The translations under genes were made by a program, and so were the position numbers. From contig CAYYKJ010000003.1 of assembly GCA_964441265.1 (NCBI GenBank), positions 23,428-87,427 of the forward strand: a DNA stretch of 64,000 nt, read 5' to 3'. How positions within the stretch are numbered: position 1 is the first letter of the stretch; every line of letters begins with the position of its first letter. This document shows positions 22,936 through 57,327 of the stretch, piece after piece. The DNA is from an uncultured archaeon (GTDB lineage: Archaea; Aenigmatarchaeota; Aenigmatarchaeia; QMZP01; QMZT01). The notes under the pieces were generated by a model, which saw only the letters and a program-made list of their open reading frames with translations, was not told the DNA's origin and ran no database searches.

Positions 22936-24626
22936 GGGCTGAGGACCTCGCGAAAAGGCAGAGATCAATAAGCATTTCCGAATTCTTCGAGAAGAACCGC
23001 CATCTGCTCGGTTACGACAACAAGACCAAGGCGCTGCTGGTTATAGTCAAGGAAGGGGTGGACAACGCCCTGGACGCCGCGGAAGAGTCGGAAATACTAC
23101 CTGAGATCTACGTGAGGGTGTCGGAGGCCGGAGAGGAAAAATACGAAATCGTCATCAGGGACAACGGCCCGGGTATCGTCAGAAAGCAGATACCCCGGAT
23201 ATTCGGCAAGCTACTTTACGGGTCGAAGTTCCACCGTCTGAAGCAGAGCAGGGGCCAGCAGGGCATAGGCATCTCAGCGGCGACACTTTATTCCCAGCTG
23301 ACCACGGGAAATCCTCTGAAAATCACGACATCCACCGGGAACGGAAAGACCCATGTTTACAGCATAAAGATAGACGTGAAAAAGAACGAGCCTATAATTC
23401 ACGAAAGCGAAACGAGGGAGGGAGAGCAATGGCACGGCGTCGAGCTCAGGTTCCTTGTGGAGGGATTATACAGGGAGCACAGGCAGTCAATACTGGAGTA
23501 CCTGAAAGAGACCGCCATATCCAACCCCCACGCAAACATAGTCTTCTCTTCTCCCAACGGGAAGCACGAGTTCAGGAGGGGTGTGGATGTTCTCCCCAAG
23601 GAACCGAGGGAAATAAAGCCGCATCTGGAAGGCATCGAGATGGGCATACTCCTGAGGATGATGAGGGACACAAAGGCCAAGACACTGTCCGGCTTCCTGA
23701 CAACCGAATTCACAAAGGTGGGCAGGAAGAGCGCCAAGGAGATATGCAGAATCGCCGAAATAAAGGAAAGTACCAGGCCGAAAAGGACAAAGGACGAGGA
23801 GGCAAAAAGGATATTGGATGCCGTCAAGAAGGTCAAGCTCCTAAAGCCTCCGCTGGACTGCCTCTCACCGCTGGGCAGTGATTTCATATCCAAGGGAATG
23901 GAAAAGGAGCTGAACCCGGAATGGGTCGGGGCGGTTACCAGGCCCCCGGCCGTTTACAGGGGATGGCCGTTCCAGATTGAAGTAGGAATAGCGTACGGGG
24001 GATCAATAGAGTCCTCAAAATTGATGAGGTTCGCCAACAGGGTGCCACTGCTCTACCAGGCAGGGGACTGCGCCATAACCAAATCGGTCAACGGGACCGA
24101 ATGGAGAAGGTACGGGCTCAGCAAGAAGCTCGAGGAAGACCCGGTGGTCATGTTCGTTCACATGGTTTCCGTATGGGTTCCCTTCACCTCCGAATCCAAG
24201 GAGGCTATCGCCTCCTATCCGGTGATAGTCAAGGAGATGAAGCTGGCGCTCCAGGAATGCGCCAGGAAGCTCTCCAGATTCCTTTCCGGTAAGAGGAAGG
24301 AAGCCCACCGAAAGGAGAGGATCAGGATATTCGACAAATACGCTGAAGAGACCGTCGACGCCCTCTCCGAACTCACCGGAAGGGAGAGGACAGAGGTGGA
24401 GAGGGAAATGAAGAAGCTCATAGAAAAAATGAAGGGCGGGACCGGTAATAAAAATCAGGCAAAGGATTACGAGATAATAACCACAGGAGAAGGAGAGGAT
24501 TCGAATGGAGAAGAGGGAAGAGGGAAAGCTGAAGGGAATGGGCCGGAAGGTTCTGGAACAGATATCAAAGGAAAAGAACCCAAAGATAGACCTTCCCATC
24601 AGGTCACTCTCAAACATCTACTTTGA
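22932..24626 (+). CDS. top6B: DNA topoisomerase VI subunit B
   Basis: GHKL ATPase N-box VKEGVDNALDAAEE, G-boxes DNGPGI and GQQGIGIS, H2TH and transducer domains. Confidence 0.9.
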   Translation: MRAEDLAKRQRSISISEFFEKNRHLLGYDNKTKALLVIVKEGVDNALDAAEESEILPEIYVRVSEAGEEKYEIVIRDNGPGIVRKQIPRIFGKLLYGSKFHRLKQSRGQQGIGISAATLYSQLTTGNPLKITTSTGNGKTHVYSIKIDVKKNEPIIHESETREGEQWHGVELRFLVEGLYREHRQSILEYLKETAISNPHANIVFSSPNGKHEFRRGVDVLPKEPREIKPHLEGIEMGILLRMMRDTKAKTLSGFLTTEFTKVGRKSAKEICRIAEIKESTRPKRTKDEEAKRILDAVKKVKLLKPPLDCLSPLGSDFISKGMEKELNPEWVGAVTRPPAVYRGWPFQIEVGIAYGGSIESSKLMRFANRVPLLYQAGDCAITKSVNGTEWRRYGLSKKLEEDPVVMFVHMVSVWVPFTSESKEAIASYPVIVKEMKLALQECARKLSRFLSGKRKEAHRKERIRIFDKYAEETVDALSELTGRERTEVEREMKKLIEKMKGGTGNKNQAKDYEIITTGEGEDSNGEEGRGKAEGNGPEGSGTDIKGKEPKDRPSHQVTLKHLL

Positions 24627-25590
24627 CGAGAAAAAGGGACTCATAAAGCTGGGAGACAAGTCCAGCCAGAGGTATTACTTCAACACCGCCCACACCAAGA
24701 AGTTCATGCAGACGCTCATGGTGGCGGCGGAGTGCAAGAAGATAATGGATCAGAAGGTAACCACATCCATCAGGGACCTTTATTACGCCCTTAAGAGGAC
24801 GCTCGCGGGAACCAAGGAGAACACCTTCGACGAGCAGAGCGAATCAGACCCGATAATCGAGGACGTCGAGGCGGCCCTCAACATGATAAGGGAAAAGCTC
24901 CACCTGAAGGCGGACAGGAAGGGGTACATGGCCGGCGACATAATCATAAGGGACTCCGGCGACCGAATCGATTGCTCCATGATGGGCTCGAGTGGGTGGG
25001 CCATACCCAGCAACGTGGAGCCCGAAGTGATAGAATTCGAAAAGGTGGATACCGATTTCGTGCTGGTCATAGAGAAGGACGCGGTGTGGCAGCGCCTGAA
25101 CGAGGACAAATTCTGGAAGAAGCAGAACTGCATCATACTCACGGGAAAGGGACAGCCTGCGAGGGGCTGCAGGAGGCTGATAAACAGGCTGCACAAAGAG
25201 CGGGGGCTTCCCGTATACGTCCTGGCGGACGCGGATCCGTGGGGGTATTACATCTATTCCGTGATCAAGCAGGGATCGATAACCCTCTCCTTCCTATCCG
25301 ACAGACTGGGGACACCGGATGCGAAGTTCATAGGCCTGACCACCAGGGACGTGGATAAGTTCGGGGTAAGCAGAAACGTGACCATCCGGCTGAGCGACAA
25401 GGACAAGAAGCGCGCAAAGGAGATGATGAAATACAGGTGGTTCAAACCCAAGGAATGGCAACGCGAAATCAAGCACATGCTCAAGATGGGTTACAAGCTC
25501 GAACTGGAGGCCCTTTCCTCCAAGGGAATCAGGTTCATCTCCGAAGAGTACCTCCCGAAGAAGCTGGCCGAGAAGGATTTCCTGGGATGA
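24505..25590 (+). CDS. top6A: DNA topoisomerase VI subunit A (Spo11-like)
   Basis: Winged-helix region with catalytic Tyr (YYALKR) and a Toprim domain (VLADADPWGYYI). Overlaps the top6B 3' end. Confidence 0.9.
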   Translation: MEKREEGKLKGMGRKVLEQISKEKNPKIDLPIRSLSNIYFDEKKGLIKLGDKSSQRYYFNTAHTKKFMQTLMVAAECKKIMDQKVTTSIRDLYYALKRTLAGTKENTFDEQSESDPIIEDVEAALNMIREKLHLKADRKGYMAGDIIIRDSGDRIDCSMMGSSGWAIPSNVEPEVIEFEKVDTDFVLVIEKDAVWQRLNEDKFWKKQNCIILTGKGQPARGCRRLINRLHKERGLPVYVLADADPWGYYIYSVIKQGSITLSFLSDRLGTPDAKFIGLTTRDVDKFGVSRNVTIRLSDKDKKRAKEMMKYRWFKPKEWQREIKHMLKMGYKLELEALSSKGIRFISEEYLPKKLAEKDFLG

Positions 25591-25625: not shown

Positions 25626-26135
25626 ATGAAGATCCATGGAGCCGAAGAAAGGGCCAGGAAAATCATTAATTATATAGGTTCGCAGGACTCCTCCGTTAGA
25701 AGCATAAGTATATCATACGATGAGTTGAACAATGAAGTCTGGAAATCACAAATAGAATACAAAATCATTTACGAAAACAATTATCTCCAAAAGGAGGCAT
25801 TCCCATTTAACAAAAAAATGAAGAAGGTAAAGGTCCTGAAGAATGAGCTTTCAGCCCTTAAGAAGATTCTGTCGGAAAAGATGAAATATTCCGGTTCCTT
25901 TAACCTCAATGTATTCAAAGGTTCCGAAAACGAATTTGTGAAAATATCCTTCTGCCCGGAGAAGGTCGAACCCGATTATGAGAAGCTGAGGAAAACGTTC
26001 AGGGTTGATTACGGAAATGCCGACACGGACGGGTGGAGGAAGAAATACGTTCCCCATACATCACCAGAGATGAAGGTCGTAAGAACGAACAAAAATGACC
26101 ACGAGATCACGGACGGGAAAGAGCAATTTATTTAA
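25626..26135 (+). CDS. Hypothetical protein (start adjusted to MKIHGAEE)
   Basis: ORF only. Confidence 0.3.
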   Translation: MKIHGAEERARKIINYIGSQDSSVRSISISYDELNNEVWKSQIEYKIIYENNYLQKEAFPFNKKMKKVKVLKNELSALKKILSEKMKYSGSFNLNVFKGSENEFVKISFCPEKVEPDYEKLRKTFRVDYGNADTDGWRKKYVPHTSPEMKVVRTNKNDHEITDGKEQFI

Positions 26136-26160
26136 ATTACTGCAGTATAATTAAGCTTAT

Positions 26161-26394
26161 GCCCCGGTAGCTCAGTGGTAACCTTTTTACCCAAAAAGGT
26201 CAATCAAACCAGCAGCTAACGCTTGCGGAGGTTACTAAAGAGCGCTCGGCTGTTAATGAAGGACAACAAGACCAGATGAGTAGCAGGCACCGAAAGGCCG
26301 CACGCGGGATGGGAAACCAATCCGTGGGCCAAAGGTTCAAAGGAGTATTTGACGCAGATTTTATCCGCGTCCTTTGAAATTCCTGCCCGGGGCG
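26161..26394 (+). tRNA. Heavily interrupted tRNA-like gene, 234 nt. The 5' part is a canonical tRNA-Asn(GUU)-like sequence with a 59-nt D-loop insertion. The 3' structure is unresolved.
   Basis: GCCCCGG-TA-GCTC-AGTGGTA-[59 nt]-GAGC-G-CTCGG-CTGTTAA... The 3' end ...GAAAT-T-CCTGC-CCGGGGC-G complements the acceptor stem, with a T-stem partner GCAGG at 26283, followed by a T-tract. No 3' anticodon-stem strand (CCGAG) was found, so the gene may have several introns or be a pseudogene. Confidence 0.4.
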
Positions 26395-26406
26395 CTTTTT
26401 TATTTT
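26395..26406 (+). terminator. T-tract (CTTTTTTATTTT) immediately after the tRNA-like gene
   Basis: Archaeal oligo-T terminator signal seen in the sequence. Confidence 0.4.
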
Positions 26407-26428
26407 AAGCAACTCGCCAAAAATAATC

Positions 26429-27448
26429 ATGGGATTAACGAGGAAGGAAAGCGAAATACTCGATTCGATAAAGGTGCCCTCTGAAGACAACCCGGAAATG
26501 CCAGAGTTTCCCCCGGGAAACCCCGAATGGCCTTCAACTCCCATAAAAAAGATAGATGTGAAGGGATTTCCTAACGTCTTTCTCAAGGATGAGAGCGTCA
26601 ATCCGACGGGTACCCACAAGGACAGGATGGCATGGGAAATAATAGTCACATACAGGCAGCTTCTGCTTTCGAAGAAACGGGGCAATCTCAAAAAATTACC
26701 CCAGATGTCGATAATATCCTCAGGTTCTGCGGCATTCGCCATCCAGACCCTCCTAAAAAAACATGGCCTGCCTAATCTCAAGGTGCTGGTTGATCATAAT
26801 CTGGACGGGTCCGTCAAGAAATCCCTCGAACGGATAGGATGTGAACTGTATGAAACCGATCTTTCGAAAAAGGAGCTTTTCACCGATGACATACTTAAAC
26901 TTACTAATAATGCGGACGGGATCGATATCACGTCTGATGACTCCCTGGGACCATTCACTGTGTTTTACGACTGGATGGCTTATGACATCATCAACCAGAG
27001 CGCGGATTACGTTTTCATTCCATACGGGACAGGCCATCTGTATGAAAACATAGTGAACGTCGCGGTCAGAGAAGGAAAGACAAAGAACCACGACAAAAGA
27101 TTCAGCGGCAATCCTAAAAAAATCAGGAAATGCAATTTCATCGGGGCAACCACGAACAACCCTCTCACAAAGGCGGACAAACTCTATTCTCCTCACCTGC
27201 CTTTCGTGCATTTCGATAAAAAATGGATAAAAATGGCCATAAGTAACGGTTTCATAGGCCCGAAATCGGACGTGTGTGTCGTGAGGGAGAGATTCCTCGG
27301 GAAAGCGATGAAAACAGCTGAAAGCAACGGGATAGATTGCGAAGCTTCTGGGATAGCCGGACTGGCGATGATGCTCCAGATGAGGGGGCAGATCAACAGG
27401 AACAAAAAGATGCTTATAATAAACACGGGAAAAACAAAATACAGATAA
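26429..27448 (+). CDS. PLP-dependent fold-type II enzyme (threonine synthase/cysteine synthase-like)
   Basis: LKDESVNPTGTHKDRMA PLP-lysine motif and ISSGSAAFA. 339 aa. Confidence 0.65.
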   Translation: MGLTRKESEILDSIKVPSEDNPEMPEFPPGNPEWPSTPIKKIDVKGFPNVFLKDESVNPTGTHKDRMAWEIIVTYRQLLLSKKRGNLKKLPQMSIISSGSAAFAIQTLLKKHGLPNLKVLVDHNLDGSVKKSLERIGCELYETDLSKKELFTDDILKLTNNADGIDITSDDSLGPFTVFYDWMAYDIINQSADYVFIPYGTGHLYENIVNVAVREGKTKNHDKRFSGNPKKIRKCNFIGATTNNPLTKADKLYSPHLPFVHFDKKWIKMAISNGFIGPKSDVCVVRERFLGKAMKTAESNGIDCEASGIAGLAMMLQMRGQINRNKKMLIINTGKTKYR

Positions 27449-29537: not shown

Positions 29538-29647
29538 GGGACGGTAGCTCAGTTCGGGAGAGCACATGGCTGAAGACCATGGAGTCGTGGGTTCAAAAAC
29601 GCTTGAAGCCGAATGGTCGGCTTCCGTCGAAATTCCCACCCGTCCCA
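29538..29647 (+). tRNA. tRNA-Phe(GAA) with a roughly 36-nt intron in the T-loop at position 59/60
   Basis: GGGACGG-TA-GCTC-AGTTCGGGA-GAGC-A-CATGG-CTGAAGA-CCATG-GAGTC-GTGGG-TTCAAA-[intron 29598..29633]-T-CCCAC-CCGTCCC-A. All stems pair, and a T-tract follows. Confidence 0.7.
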
Positions 29648-56828: not shown

Positions 56829-56940
56829 TCCCTTTTGGTCCCACGCTTTTGTCGGGAAAAGGAAAAGCGTGGAGTGGAAGCGGTCAGCTCCCTTTTGGTC
56901 CCACGCTTTTGTCGGGAAAAGGAAAAGCGTGGAGTGGAAG
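56829..56940. repeat. Two identical tandem copies of a 52-bp unit (period 60 bp, 8-bp spacer). Each unit contains a 10-bp-stem hairpin.
   Basis: tcccttttggtcccacgcttttgtcgggaaaaggaaaagcgtggagtggaag occurs twice. The internal palindrome is CCACGCTTTT/AAAAGCGTGG. Confidence 0.6.
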
Positions 56941-56946
56941 AATGAA

Positions 56947-57181
56947 TGGGCCCGACGGGAATTCCGAACAGCGGATCCCTTCTTTTGGGATCTCCTTCCT
57001 TTCGGAAGGGCTGATTCGAACCCGCGACTCCCGGATGTCTTTCTGTCATCCGCCCGTGAGGGCGTCAGCATACTTTTATGCCCAGATAAAAGTTTCACAC
57101 GTCCAGGAAAAACCCGAGTTTCCTTGGAAACCGGTGCTCTAATCCCCATCCTCGGGGGATTCCAGGCTGAGCTACGAGCCC
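56947..57181 (-). tRNA. tRNA-Trp(CCA)-like gene, 235 nt, with predicted introns in the D-loop (20 nt), the anticodon loop (about 90 nt) and the T-loop (about 53 nt)
   Basis: GGGCTCG-TA-GCTC-AGCCTGG[AATCCCCCGAGGATGGGGAT]TA-GAGC-A-CCGGT-TTCCAA|...|TCCGG-GAGTC-GCGGG-TTCGAAT|...|CCCGT-CGGGCCC-A. Removing the 20 nt restores a canonical D-arm. The T-stem pairs GCGGG/CCCGU. The acceptor pairs GGGCTCG/CGGGCCC. The 31:39 pair is U-U, so the anticodon-stem junction is uncertain. Confidence 0.4.
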
Positions 57182-57183
57182 AA

Positions 57184-57255
57184 CGCCTCGGCCGGGATTT
57201 GAACCCGGGTCCTGGGAGTGACAGTCCCAGATGATAACCACTACACTACCGAAGC
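57184..57255 (-). tRNA. tRNA-Asp(GUC), 72 nt, no encoded CCA
   Basis: GCTTCGG-TA-GTGT-AGTGGTTA-TCAT-C-TGGGA-CTGTCAC-TCCCA-GGAC-CCGGG-TTCAAAT-CCCGG-CCGAGGC-G. Only 2 nt separate it from the downstream Trp-like gene. The D-stem has one mismatch. Confidence 0.75.
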
Positions 57256-57327
57256 ATTAATTCCGGACTGACTGATGTCTTCTTTATTTATTTACAAATT
57301 TAAATATATTCTTATTCGTGGTTTCTT

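Follow-up and report, generated by a model that had tools for sequence, protein, structure and literature searches.

A probable tRNA-Asn(GUU) gene with four bulge-helix-bulge introns in an archaeon of the Candidatus Aenigmatarchaeota

In the archaeal splicing motif, the bulge-helix-bulge (BHB), exon bases −6 to −3 at the 5′ splice site pair with intron bases −6 to −3 at the 3′ splice site, and the cuts fall after the second base of each of two 3-nt bulges that are separated by this 4-bp helix. Multiple-intron tRNA genes of the Thermoproteales (Crenarchaeota) were reportedly described by Sugahara et al. in 2007/2008. For this order a maximum of three introns per tRNA gene is stated, and similar introns in different tRNAs have been interpreted as the result of intron transposition (PMC8450103, PMC4033280). 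Among eukaryotes, a nuclear tRNA of the red alga Cyanidioschyzon merolae can be interrupted by as many as three BHB introns, located in the D-arm, the T-loop, and at 37/38; RT-PCR has confirmed that they are removed step by step (PMC3728597). For the Asgard lineages Atabeyarchaeia and Freyarchaeia, passages of Valentin-Alvarado et al. [quoted passage not shown]

Non-canonical tRNA introns have also been found in other DPANN archaea, together with an epsilon2 EndA in ARMAN-2 and an alpha4 EndA with an L3 loop (PMC3239211, PMC5829648), and incomplete tRNA sets are taken by the authors to indicate undetected disrupted genes (PMC5829648). The disrupted tRNA genes in these two accounts resemble the locus described here, with the differences that neither contains a four-intron gene and that the tRNA sets of Aenigmatarchaeota were outside their analysis. 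Our literature searches with both spellings of the phylum name combined with tRNA and intron returned no description of tRNA introns in Aenigmatarchaeota, and a search for "multiple-intron" with tRNA and DPANN returned no paper.

Here, we describe an interrupted tRNA gene from a 64-kb stretch of DNA that was analysed as a whole (hereafter, the window, to which all coordinates refer unless another locus is named). The 234-nt locus at 26161–26394 on the forward strand is very probably a functional tRNA-Asn(GUU) gene of the Candidatus Aenigmatarchaeota (DPANN) with four protein-spliced BHB introns, as judged from its exon/intron map, the geometry of the BHB motifs, the identity of the predicted product to intron-free orthologues, and the covariation of the stems. 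Like the Thermoproteales genes, it is colinear and contains several short introns, both canonical and non-canonical (D-loop, T-stem, and T-loop), which lie at BHB or relaxed BHB motifs, are missed by standard detectors and, here presumably as well, are removed by EndA and a ligase. Unlike in the Thermoproteales, there are four introns rather than at most three, and the host belongs to DPANN rather than TACK. Cyanidioschyzon merolae likewise has several BHB introns within a single tRNA, at sites in the D-arm, the T-loop, and at 37/38. In the Asgard lineages, a different phylum, tRNA-Asn has two introns in the parts of PMC11291895 considered. Multi-intron archaeal tRNA genes are thus already known, and four introns is the upper end of the reported range.

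The host is archaeal, with topoisomerase VI A and B, a split RpoB, and RpoH, and the nearest relatives of its topoisomerase VI-A come from Candidatus Aenigmatarchaeota MAGs (71–79% identity). Genes for topoisomerase VI-B and VI-A adjoin the tRNA-Asn gene, and in many relatives a tRNA-Asn gene likewise lies directly downstream of topoisomerase VI-A. The ORF of topoisomerase VI-A (24505–25590) has 361 aa from its first ATG and overlaps topoisomerase VI-B; its start codon is uncertain, since a public gene call on the same DNA (P0002) has 294 aa. As the source of the sequence is a MAG, an assembly artefact or chimera might be considered; such an origin is next to inconceivable, given that the independent Logan assembly SRR7048220 (L161) matches the window base for base over 6.9 kb including the gene, that two other species (L002 and L162/L163) have three of the introns in identical positions, and that the fourth occurs in L013 and L086.

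The locus begins with G1 of the acceptor GCCCCGG and ends with a discriminator G; the tRNA-like ends and the T-tract behind them had already been placed exactly in a first-pass annotation made from the sequence alone. The 33 nt 5′ of G1 (TTATTTAAATTACTGCAGTATAATTAAGCTTAT), which include TTTAAAT, are identical in L002 and L162, unlike the introns and the 3′ flank, which have diverged in both; the 3′ flank of the window gene is unrelated to that of L002. No tRNA was called at the locus by ARAGORN on the genomic sequence, with or without intron mode. A covariance-model search with Rfam, at gathering thresholds and at E ≤ 10 over 26000–26550, left it equally unmatched, although ARAGORN does recognise the spliced product. 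Over the whole window, the sole tRNA call of ARAGORN was the tRNA-Asp at 57183–57256, and Rfam at gathering thresholds found this tRNA-Asp and a 5S rRNA. Spliced alignment of the predicted 72-nt product against the window scored 116 at the locus and 65 at the next-best tile; by this measure a second tRNA-Asn, whose discovery would have pointed away from a working gene at 26161–26394, is absent from the 64-kb window. The predicted features of the locus are collected in Table 1.

Table 1 Coordinates in the window of the predicted exons, introns, and flanking signals of the tRNA-Asn gene
Feature	Positions	Strand	Basis
TATA-box-like element TTTAAAT, putative promoter	26131–26137	+	By sequence; 24–30 nt upstream of the mature 5′ end
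Exon 1: acceptor GCCCCGG, U8 A9, D-stem GCTC, D-loop AGTGGT (tRNA positions 1–20)	26161–26179	+	Spliced alignment; ARAGORN on the spliced product
Intron 1, 59 nt, D-loop 20/21	26180–26238	+	BHB scan; same-site introns in L002, L162/L163
Exon 2: A21, D-stem GAGC, G26, CTCGG, loop CTGTTA; anticodon GTT at 26252–26254	26239–26255	+	ARAGORN; spliced alignment
Intron 2, 33 nt, canonical 37/38	26256–26288	+	BHB scan; same-site introns in L001, L002, L016, L086, L088, L162
Exon 3: A38, CCGAA at 26290–26294, variable loop AGGCC, G49 C50	26289–26301	+	ARAGORN; spliced alignment
Intron 3, 31 nt, T-stem 50/51	26302–26332	+	BHB scan; homologous 31-nt intron in L013, L086
Exon 4: T-stem A51 G52 G53 and T-loop TTCAAA (tRNA positions 51–59)	26333–26341	+	ARAGORN; spliced alignment
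Intron 4, 39 nt, T-loop 59/60	26342–26380	+	BHB scan; same-site introns in L002, L003, L081, L162
Exon 5: T60, CCTGC, acceptor 3′ strand CCGGGGC, discriminator G73	26381–26394	+	By sequence; ARAGORN
Oligo-T tract TTTTTTATTTT, putative archaeal terminator-like signal (T-tract 26396–26401)	26396–26406	+	By sequence

The 5′ half of the locus reads GCCCCGG-TA-GCTC-AGTGGT[59 nt]AGAGC-G-CTCGG-CTGTTA and its 3′ end T-CCTGC-CCGGGGC-G. The five-exon model came from a comparison of the 3′ half with the consensus of archaeal tRNAs, and the introns of orthologues were mapped by spliced dynamic-programming alignment of the 72-mer to the loci of the relatives; the intron map is anchored in these orthologues and not in ARAGORN alone. 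Removal of the four introns yields the 72-mer GCCCCGGTAGCTCAGTGGTAGAGCGCTCGGCTGTTAACCGAAAGGCCGCAGGTTCAAATCCTGCCCGGGGCG, which ARAGORN calls as tRNA-Asn(gtt), in agreement with the Asn/GUU assignment of the first-pass annotation. The 72-mer retains U8, A14, G18G19, A21, U33, G53-T54-T55-C56, A58, and C61 as well as the G15:C48 pair and the G73 discriminator, so that the invariant bases are intact; CCA is not encoded by the gene. The identity elements of AsnRS are the anticodon GUU, placed in a loop of 7 nt that has U33 and a purine at position 37, and the discriminator G73. The predicted tRNA has the loop CUGUUAA and, at 26394, the discriminator G; all 16 orthologues agree with it in both respects. 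A split or permuted gene is at odds with the arrangement of the five exons, which are colinear on one strand within 234 nt.

A 59-nt insertion in the D-loop, as noticed in the first-pass annotation, corresponds to intron 1, for which the placement in Table 1 was chosen by BHB register (26181–26239 would give the same mature sequence). The 3′ part had been read differently, with two further insertions and no 3′ strand for the anticodon stem. Three more introns are present there, making four in total, and the 3′ anticodon-stem strand exists as CCGAA, which pairs with CTCGG except for a C27–A43 mismatch. This strand escaped the earlier reading because the T-stem had been assigned to a look-alike: the contiguous GCAGG at 26283–26287 is an exact copy of the 5′ strand of the T-stem and forms the 3′ end of intron 2, while the true strand, GC|AGG, consists of GC (26300–26301) and AGG (26333–26335) and is divided by intron 3. 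The earlier idea of a tRNA with several non-canonical introns holds, with four introns on BHB motifs, of which one is the canonical 37/38 intron.

The four junctions were fixed independently of BHB scoring, via the alignment to orthologues. In a BHB scan in which every position pair in the region was scored for a central helix and flanking helices, the four introns ranked at the top, with a 4/4 central helix in register at all four junctions and flanking helices (h, h′) of 4/6, 4/2, 0/6, and 3/3 for introns 1 to 4, respectively. Among position pairs taken at random from the window, only a fraction of 2.5 × 10−4 attains a 4/4 central helix together with 6 or more flanking base pairs. Intron 1 has the central helix AGUG/UACU with bulges GU|A and AA|A, the 4-bp D stem as exon helix, and a 6-bp intron helix, and intron 2 has CUGU/GCAG with bulges UA|A and GC|A, 4 bp of the anticodon stem as exon helix, and an intron helix of 2 bp. 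Intron 4 has UUCA/UGAA with bulges AA|G and AU|U, an exon helix formed by 3 bp of the inner T stem, and an intron helix of 3 bp. Intron 3 is a relaxed motif (HBh′-like): its central helix GGCC/GGCC with bulges GC|A and AA|A is followed by a 6-bp intron helix that extends into a GG/CC stem with a GAAA loop, and the outer exon helix is absent. Since intron 3 lacks this outer helix and the inner helix of intron 2 has only 2 bp, one or more of the sites must count as relaxed and would require a tolerant EndA. Furthermore, the two outer T-stem pairs must open during the cutting of intron 3, because its 5′ bulge includes G49 and C50.

The 234 nt fold with a minimum free energy (MFE) of −86.3 kcal/mol (z = −3.8 versus shuffles). 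All four BHBs can coexist in one conformer at −64.2 kcal/mol, i.e., 22 kcal/mol above the MFE; such a gap, though usual for BHBs that are stabilised by the enzyme, is a caveat to the model. The unconstrained MFE fold contains the 5′ bulge and the helices of intron 3. In the same fold, the GCAGG of intron 2 pairs with CCUGC and displaces the split T-stem strand; this pentamer might act as a decoy in folding or, alternatively, keep the 3′ half in place until the introns are spliced out. Intron 1 can adopt a continuous 11-bp helix in the MFE fold in place of its BHB, and the bulged register is preferred over this helix because its central helix changes from AGUG/UACU in the window to AGCG/CGCC in L002, including the replacement of U16:A by C16:G.

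Transcription, cleavage, ligation, and the type of EndA that acts on the transcript are inferred here from established archaeal tRNA splicing. Transcription from a TATA promoter located about 27 nt upstream would produce a pre-tRNA of roughly 234 nt, in which each exon–intron pair would form a BHB of two 3-nt bulges on opposite strands and a 4-bp helix between them, built from the last bases of the exon and the last bases of the intron; the motif of intron 4 would employ the inner three T-stem pairs. EndA would cleave each bulge past its second base, making eight cuts in total, an RtcB-type ligase would join the five exons to the 72-nt tRNA, and end processing would then be followed by the addition of CCA.

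The relatives have between zero and three introns in this gene, distributed over six sites. Intron-free orthologues were found in L010, L020, L095, L023, and L032, of which L010, at the same locus and uninterrupted, is identical to the spliced product of the window at 69 of 72 positions. One intron is present in L001 (37/38), L003 and L081 (59/60), L013 (50/51), and L006 (about 29/30), two in L016, L086 (37/38 and 50/51), L008, and L094, and three in L002, L162/L163 (20/21, 37/38, and 59/60), and L088. Only the window gene has four among the orthologues compared; it combines intron sites that are found separately in the relatives. The tRNA-Asn orthologues are between 72 and 247 nt long. Intron 3, the 31-nt intron in the T-stem, is distributed unevenly: it occurs in the window and in a more distant lineage with a GTCCCGG acceptor (L013 7703–7733, L086 3710–3740) and is missing from the two closest relatives, L162 and L002, which have the other three introns. 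This pattern reflects either repeated loss or lateral gain. The interrupted tRNA-Asn genes of L006 (7101–7193) and L016 (7105–7211) have a 19-nt intron in the 5′ strand of the anticodon stem, and these are wrongly typed by ARAGORN as tRNA-Gly(tcc) and tRNA-Trp(cca).

When the 16 orthologues are spliced, their cloverleaf is 97.6% paired and 12 of 21 pairs have changed on both sides, a degree of covariation that none of 500 shuffles reached and that collapsed in slid controls. Compared with L002, the exons are identical at 70 of 72 positions (97%) and the three shared introns at 44/59, 28/57, and 24/59 (41–75%); intron 1 is the best conserved of these (44/59), and conservation is poor in introns 2 and 4. 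Intron 3 is identical to the 31-nt intron of L013 and L086 at 23–24 of 31 positions (about 77%), and its central helix covaries, with GGCC/GGCC in the window versus GGUC/GACU in both relatives. The same is seen for the 29/30 intron of relatives (CGCC/GGCG versus CGCA/UGCG).

These data bear directly on the possibility, raised in the first-pass annotation, that the locus is a decaying pseudogene, i.e., a former tRNA-Asn gene that has gained insertions and whose transcript no longer matures into a working tRNA. The failure of ARAGORN and Rfam at the locus, the C27–A43 mismatch, and the difference between the all-BHB fold and the MFE could all be expected from such a remnant. However, every invariant tRNA base is retained, the exons have changed much more slowly than the introns, the stems covary, and the insertions lie exactly on BHB motifs with compensatory changes. 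The promoter stretch is conserved, and neither the conserved locus nor the window as a whole has any other tRNA-Asn. The mismatch is a lineage trait, since CTCGG/CCGAA with C27–A43 is also present in the uninterrupted genes of L010 and L020; pair 27:43 is unpaired in 8 of the 16 orthologues. We therefore regard decay as very improbable.

An even more improbable reading is that of a three-intron gene with a different mature tRNA, in which either 26311–26378 would be spliced out as a single 68-nt intron or the T-stem strand would be the contiguous GCAGG. The first variant draws on a BHB-like pair at 26311/26378 (central helix 4/4, h = 1, h′ = 3) and a 74-nt product that ARAGORN also calls as tRNA-Asn, and the second on the pairing of GCAGG 26283–26287 with CCUGC in the MFE fold. 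The product of the first, however, lacks the GCAGG-TTCAAAT-CCTGC T arm that is kept in 16 of 16 orthologues, and the second leaves the anticodon stem without its 3′ strand. The four-intron product, on the other hand, has its 69/72 match in L010, and intron 3 (L013/L086) and intron 4 (L003/L081) occur without each other in relatives, which proves that each is a unit of its own. Blind enumeration of BHB-like deletions in combination with ARAGORN proved too permissive and was not used as evidence: for the tRNA-Asn gene there were 21 listed ARAGORN-positive solutions, Val calls among them, and for the gene at 56947–57181 over two dozen contradictory ones.

With the four-intron tRNA-Asn gene as the preferred reading, the question arises of whether the introns have a role or a mobility of their own. 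A sequence family with two hairpins (AACCTTTTT..AAAAGGTT ... GGAGC..GCTTCC) includes intron 1 and has further members at L162 5583–5641, L166 713–763, L085 1627–1678, and L109 754–799. Significant similarity (z = 14) links intron 1 of the L162 tRNA-Asn gene to the 37/38 intron of the L166 tRNA-Asp, and both stem from sample SRR21285597. In L085 and L109, the intron 1-like sequence is an intergenic element outside tRNA genes, immediately past the stop codon of topoisomerase VI-A, and the element of L085 resembles the L166 intron (z = 18). To judge from sequence similarity, its members may be either mobile introns or instances of a structural element held in common. A search of the window and 160 loci found no paralogues of introns 1–4, a degenerate intron-1 pattern had no match in viral contigs, and the hairpin motif CCTTTT..AAAAGG does not form a dispersed repeat in the window.

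That one or more introns are also functional in their own right, as stable circular RNAs, guide RNAs, or mobile intron copies, is suggested by the conservation of intron 1 and by its resemblance to the L166 tRNA-Asp intron and the L085/L109 element. We consider this unlikely: besides the lack of paralogues in the window and of matches in viral contigs, conservation is poor in introns 2 and 4, none of the four introns matches an Rfam family even at E ≤ 10, and canonical C/D boxes were not seen by eye in them. A box C/D guide RNA of the kind that resides in tRNA-Trp introns would have C (RUGAUGA) and D (CUGA) boxes as well as guide complementarity to the tRNA; no CUGA D box was seen, and intron 2 contains only the partial C-like strings AUGAAGG and AGAUGAG. 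The broader proposal that the Aenigmatarchaeota undergo active BHB intron gain and loss driven by a mobile intron family is put forward tentatively, as a possibility that is still rather on the unlikely side.

Other tRNA genes of the window and its relatives are interrupted as well. A tRNA-Phe(GAA) gene at 29538–29647 (+), 3.1 kb downstream of tRNA-Asn, has a 36-nt T-loop intron at 59/60 (29598–29633) and is missed by both ARAGORN and Rfam; its BHB has a central helix of 3/4 with h = 5 and h′ = 3, and ARAGORN calls the spliced 74-mer as tRNA-Phe. In relatives tRNA-Phe is likewise found downstream of tRNA-Asn, directly adjacent in L010. The tRNA-Asp of the window is intron-free, whereas copies in relatives carry one to three introns at 20/21, 37/38, and 59/60 (L166 632–895 with all three sites, L167 1455–1677, L164 1616–1724). 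The 59/60 site is used in tRNA-Asn and tRNA-Phe of the window and in tRNA-Asp of relatives, and 20/21, 37/38, and 59/60 look like hot spots of the clade because they recur in Asn, Asp, and Phe genes.

Two nucleotides past tRNA-Asp starts a Trp-like gene (56947–57181, −) with good acceptor, D, and T arms, a plausible 54-nt intron at 59/60 (57014–56961), and a likely 18-nt intron in the D-loop. BHB rules and four orthologues, including L164, L166, and L167, gave no solution for its anticodon region, which contains a block conserved in all four; the conserved blocks of alignment A1 are GGANGTGTGARACTTTTATCTG...ATAAAAGTRTGNTGA and ATGACAGARAGACATCCGGG. For an invariant TCCGGG there are two possible pairing partners on the 5′ side (CCGGT; CCTGG/TCCGG/CCCGG), and conservation does not extend to the CCA that follows CCGGTTT (CCT in L164, TCG in L167). 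The first-pass annotation had found it curious that this gene and tRNA-Asn are almost equal in length, which is a coincidence: orthologues of the Trp-like gene measure 221–322 nt, compared with the range given above for tRNA-Asn. Immediately 3′ of the Trp-like gene (−) lie two 51-nt direct repeats (56830–56880 and 56890–56940), 60 nt apart, each of which contains a 10-bp hairpin (CCACGCTTTT...AAAAGCGTGG). They were not reported by Tandem Repeats Finder over 56830–56940 and may be tandem terminators or something else.

In total, three of the four tRNA genes recognised in the window, namely Asn, Phe, and the gene beside tRNA-Asp, are invisible to ARAGORN and Rfam. Because interrupted genes go undetected, tRNA counts for DPANN archaea, as they enter into estimates of completeness and coding capacity, would be too low, and automatic annotation of this clade will give wrong isotypes in addition to missing tRNA genes. 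A BHB-aware search guided by orthologues recovers such interrupted genes. The series of orthologues with zero, one, two, three, and four introns over six sites provides data on how fast introns are gained and lost, and it bears on the question of which EndA variants accept relaxed motifs. If the members of the intron 1 family all derive from a single element that transposes, the clade would offer a natural system for studying the mechanism by which archaeal tRNA introns spread.
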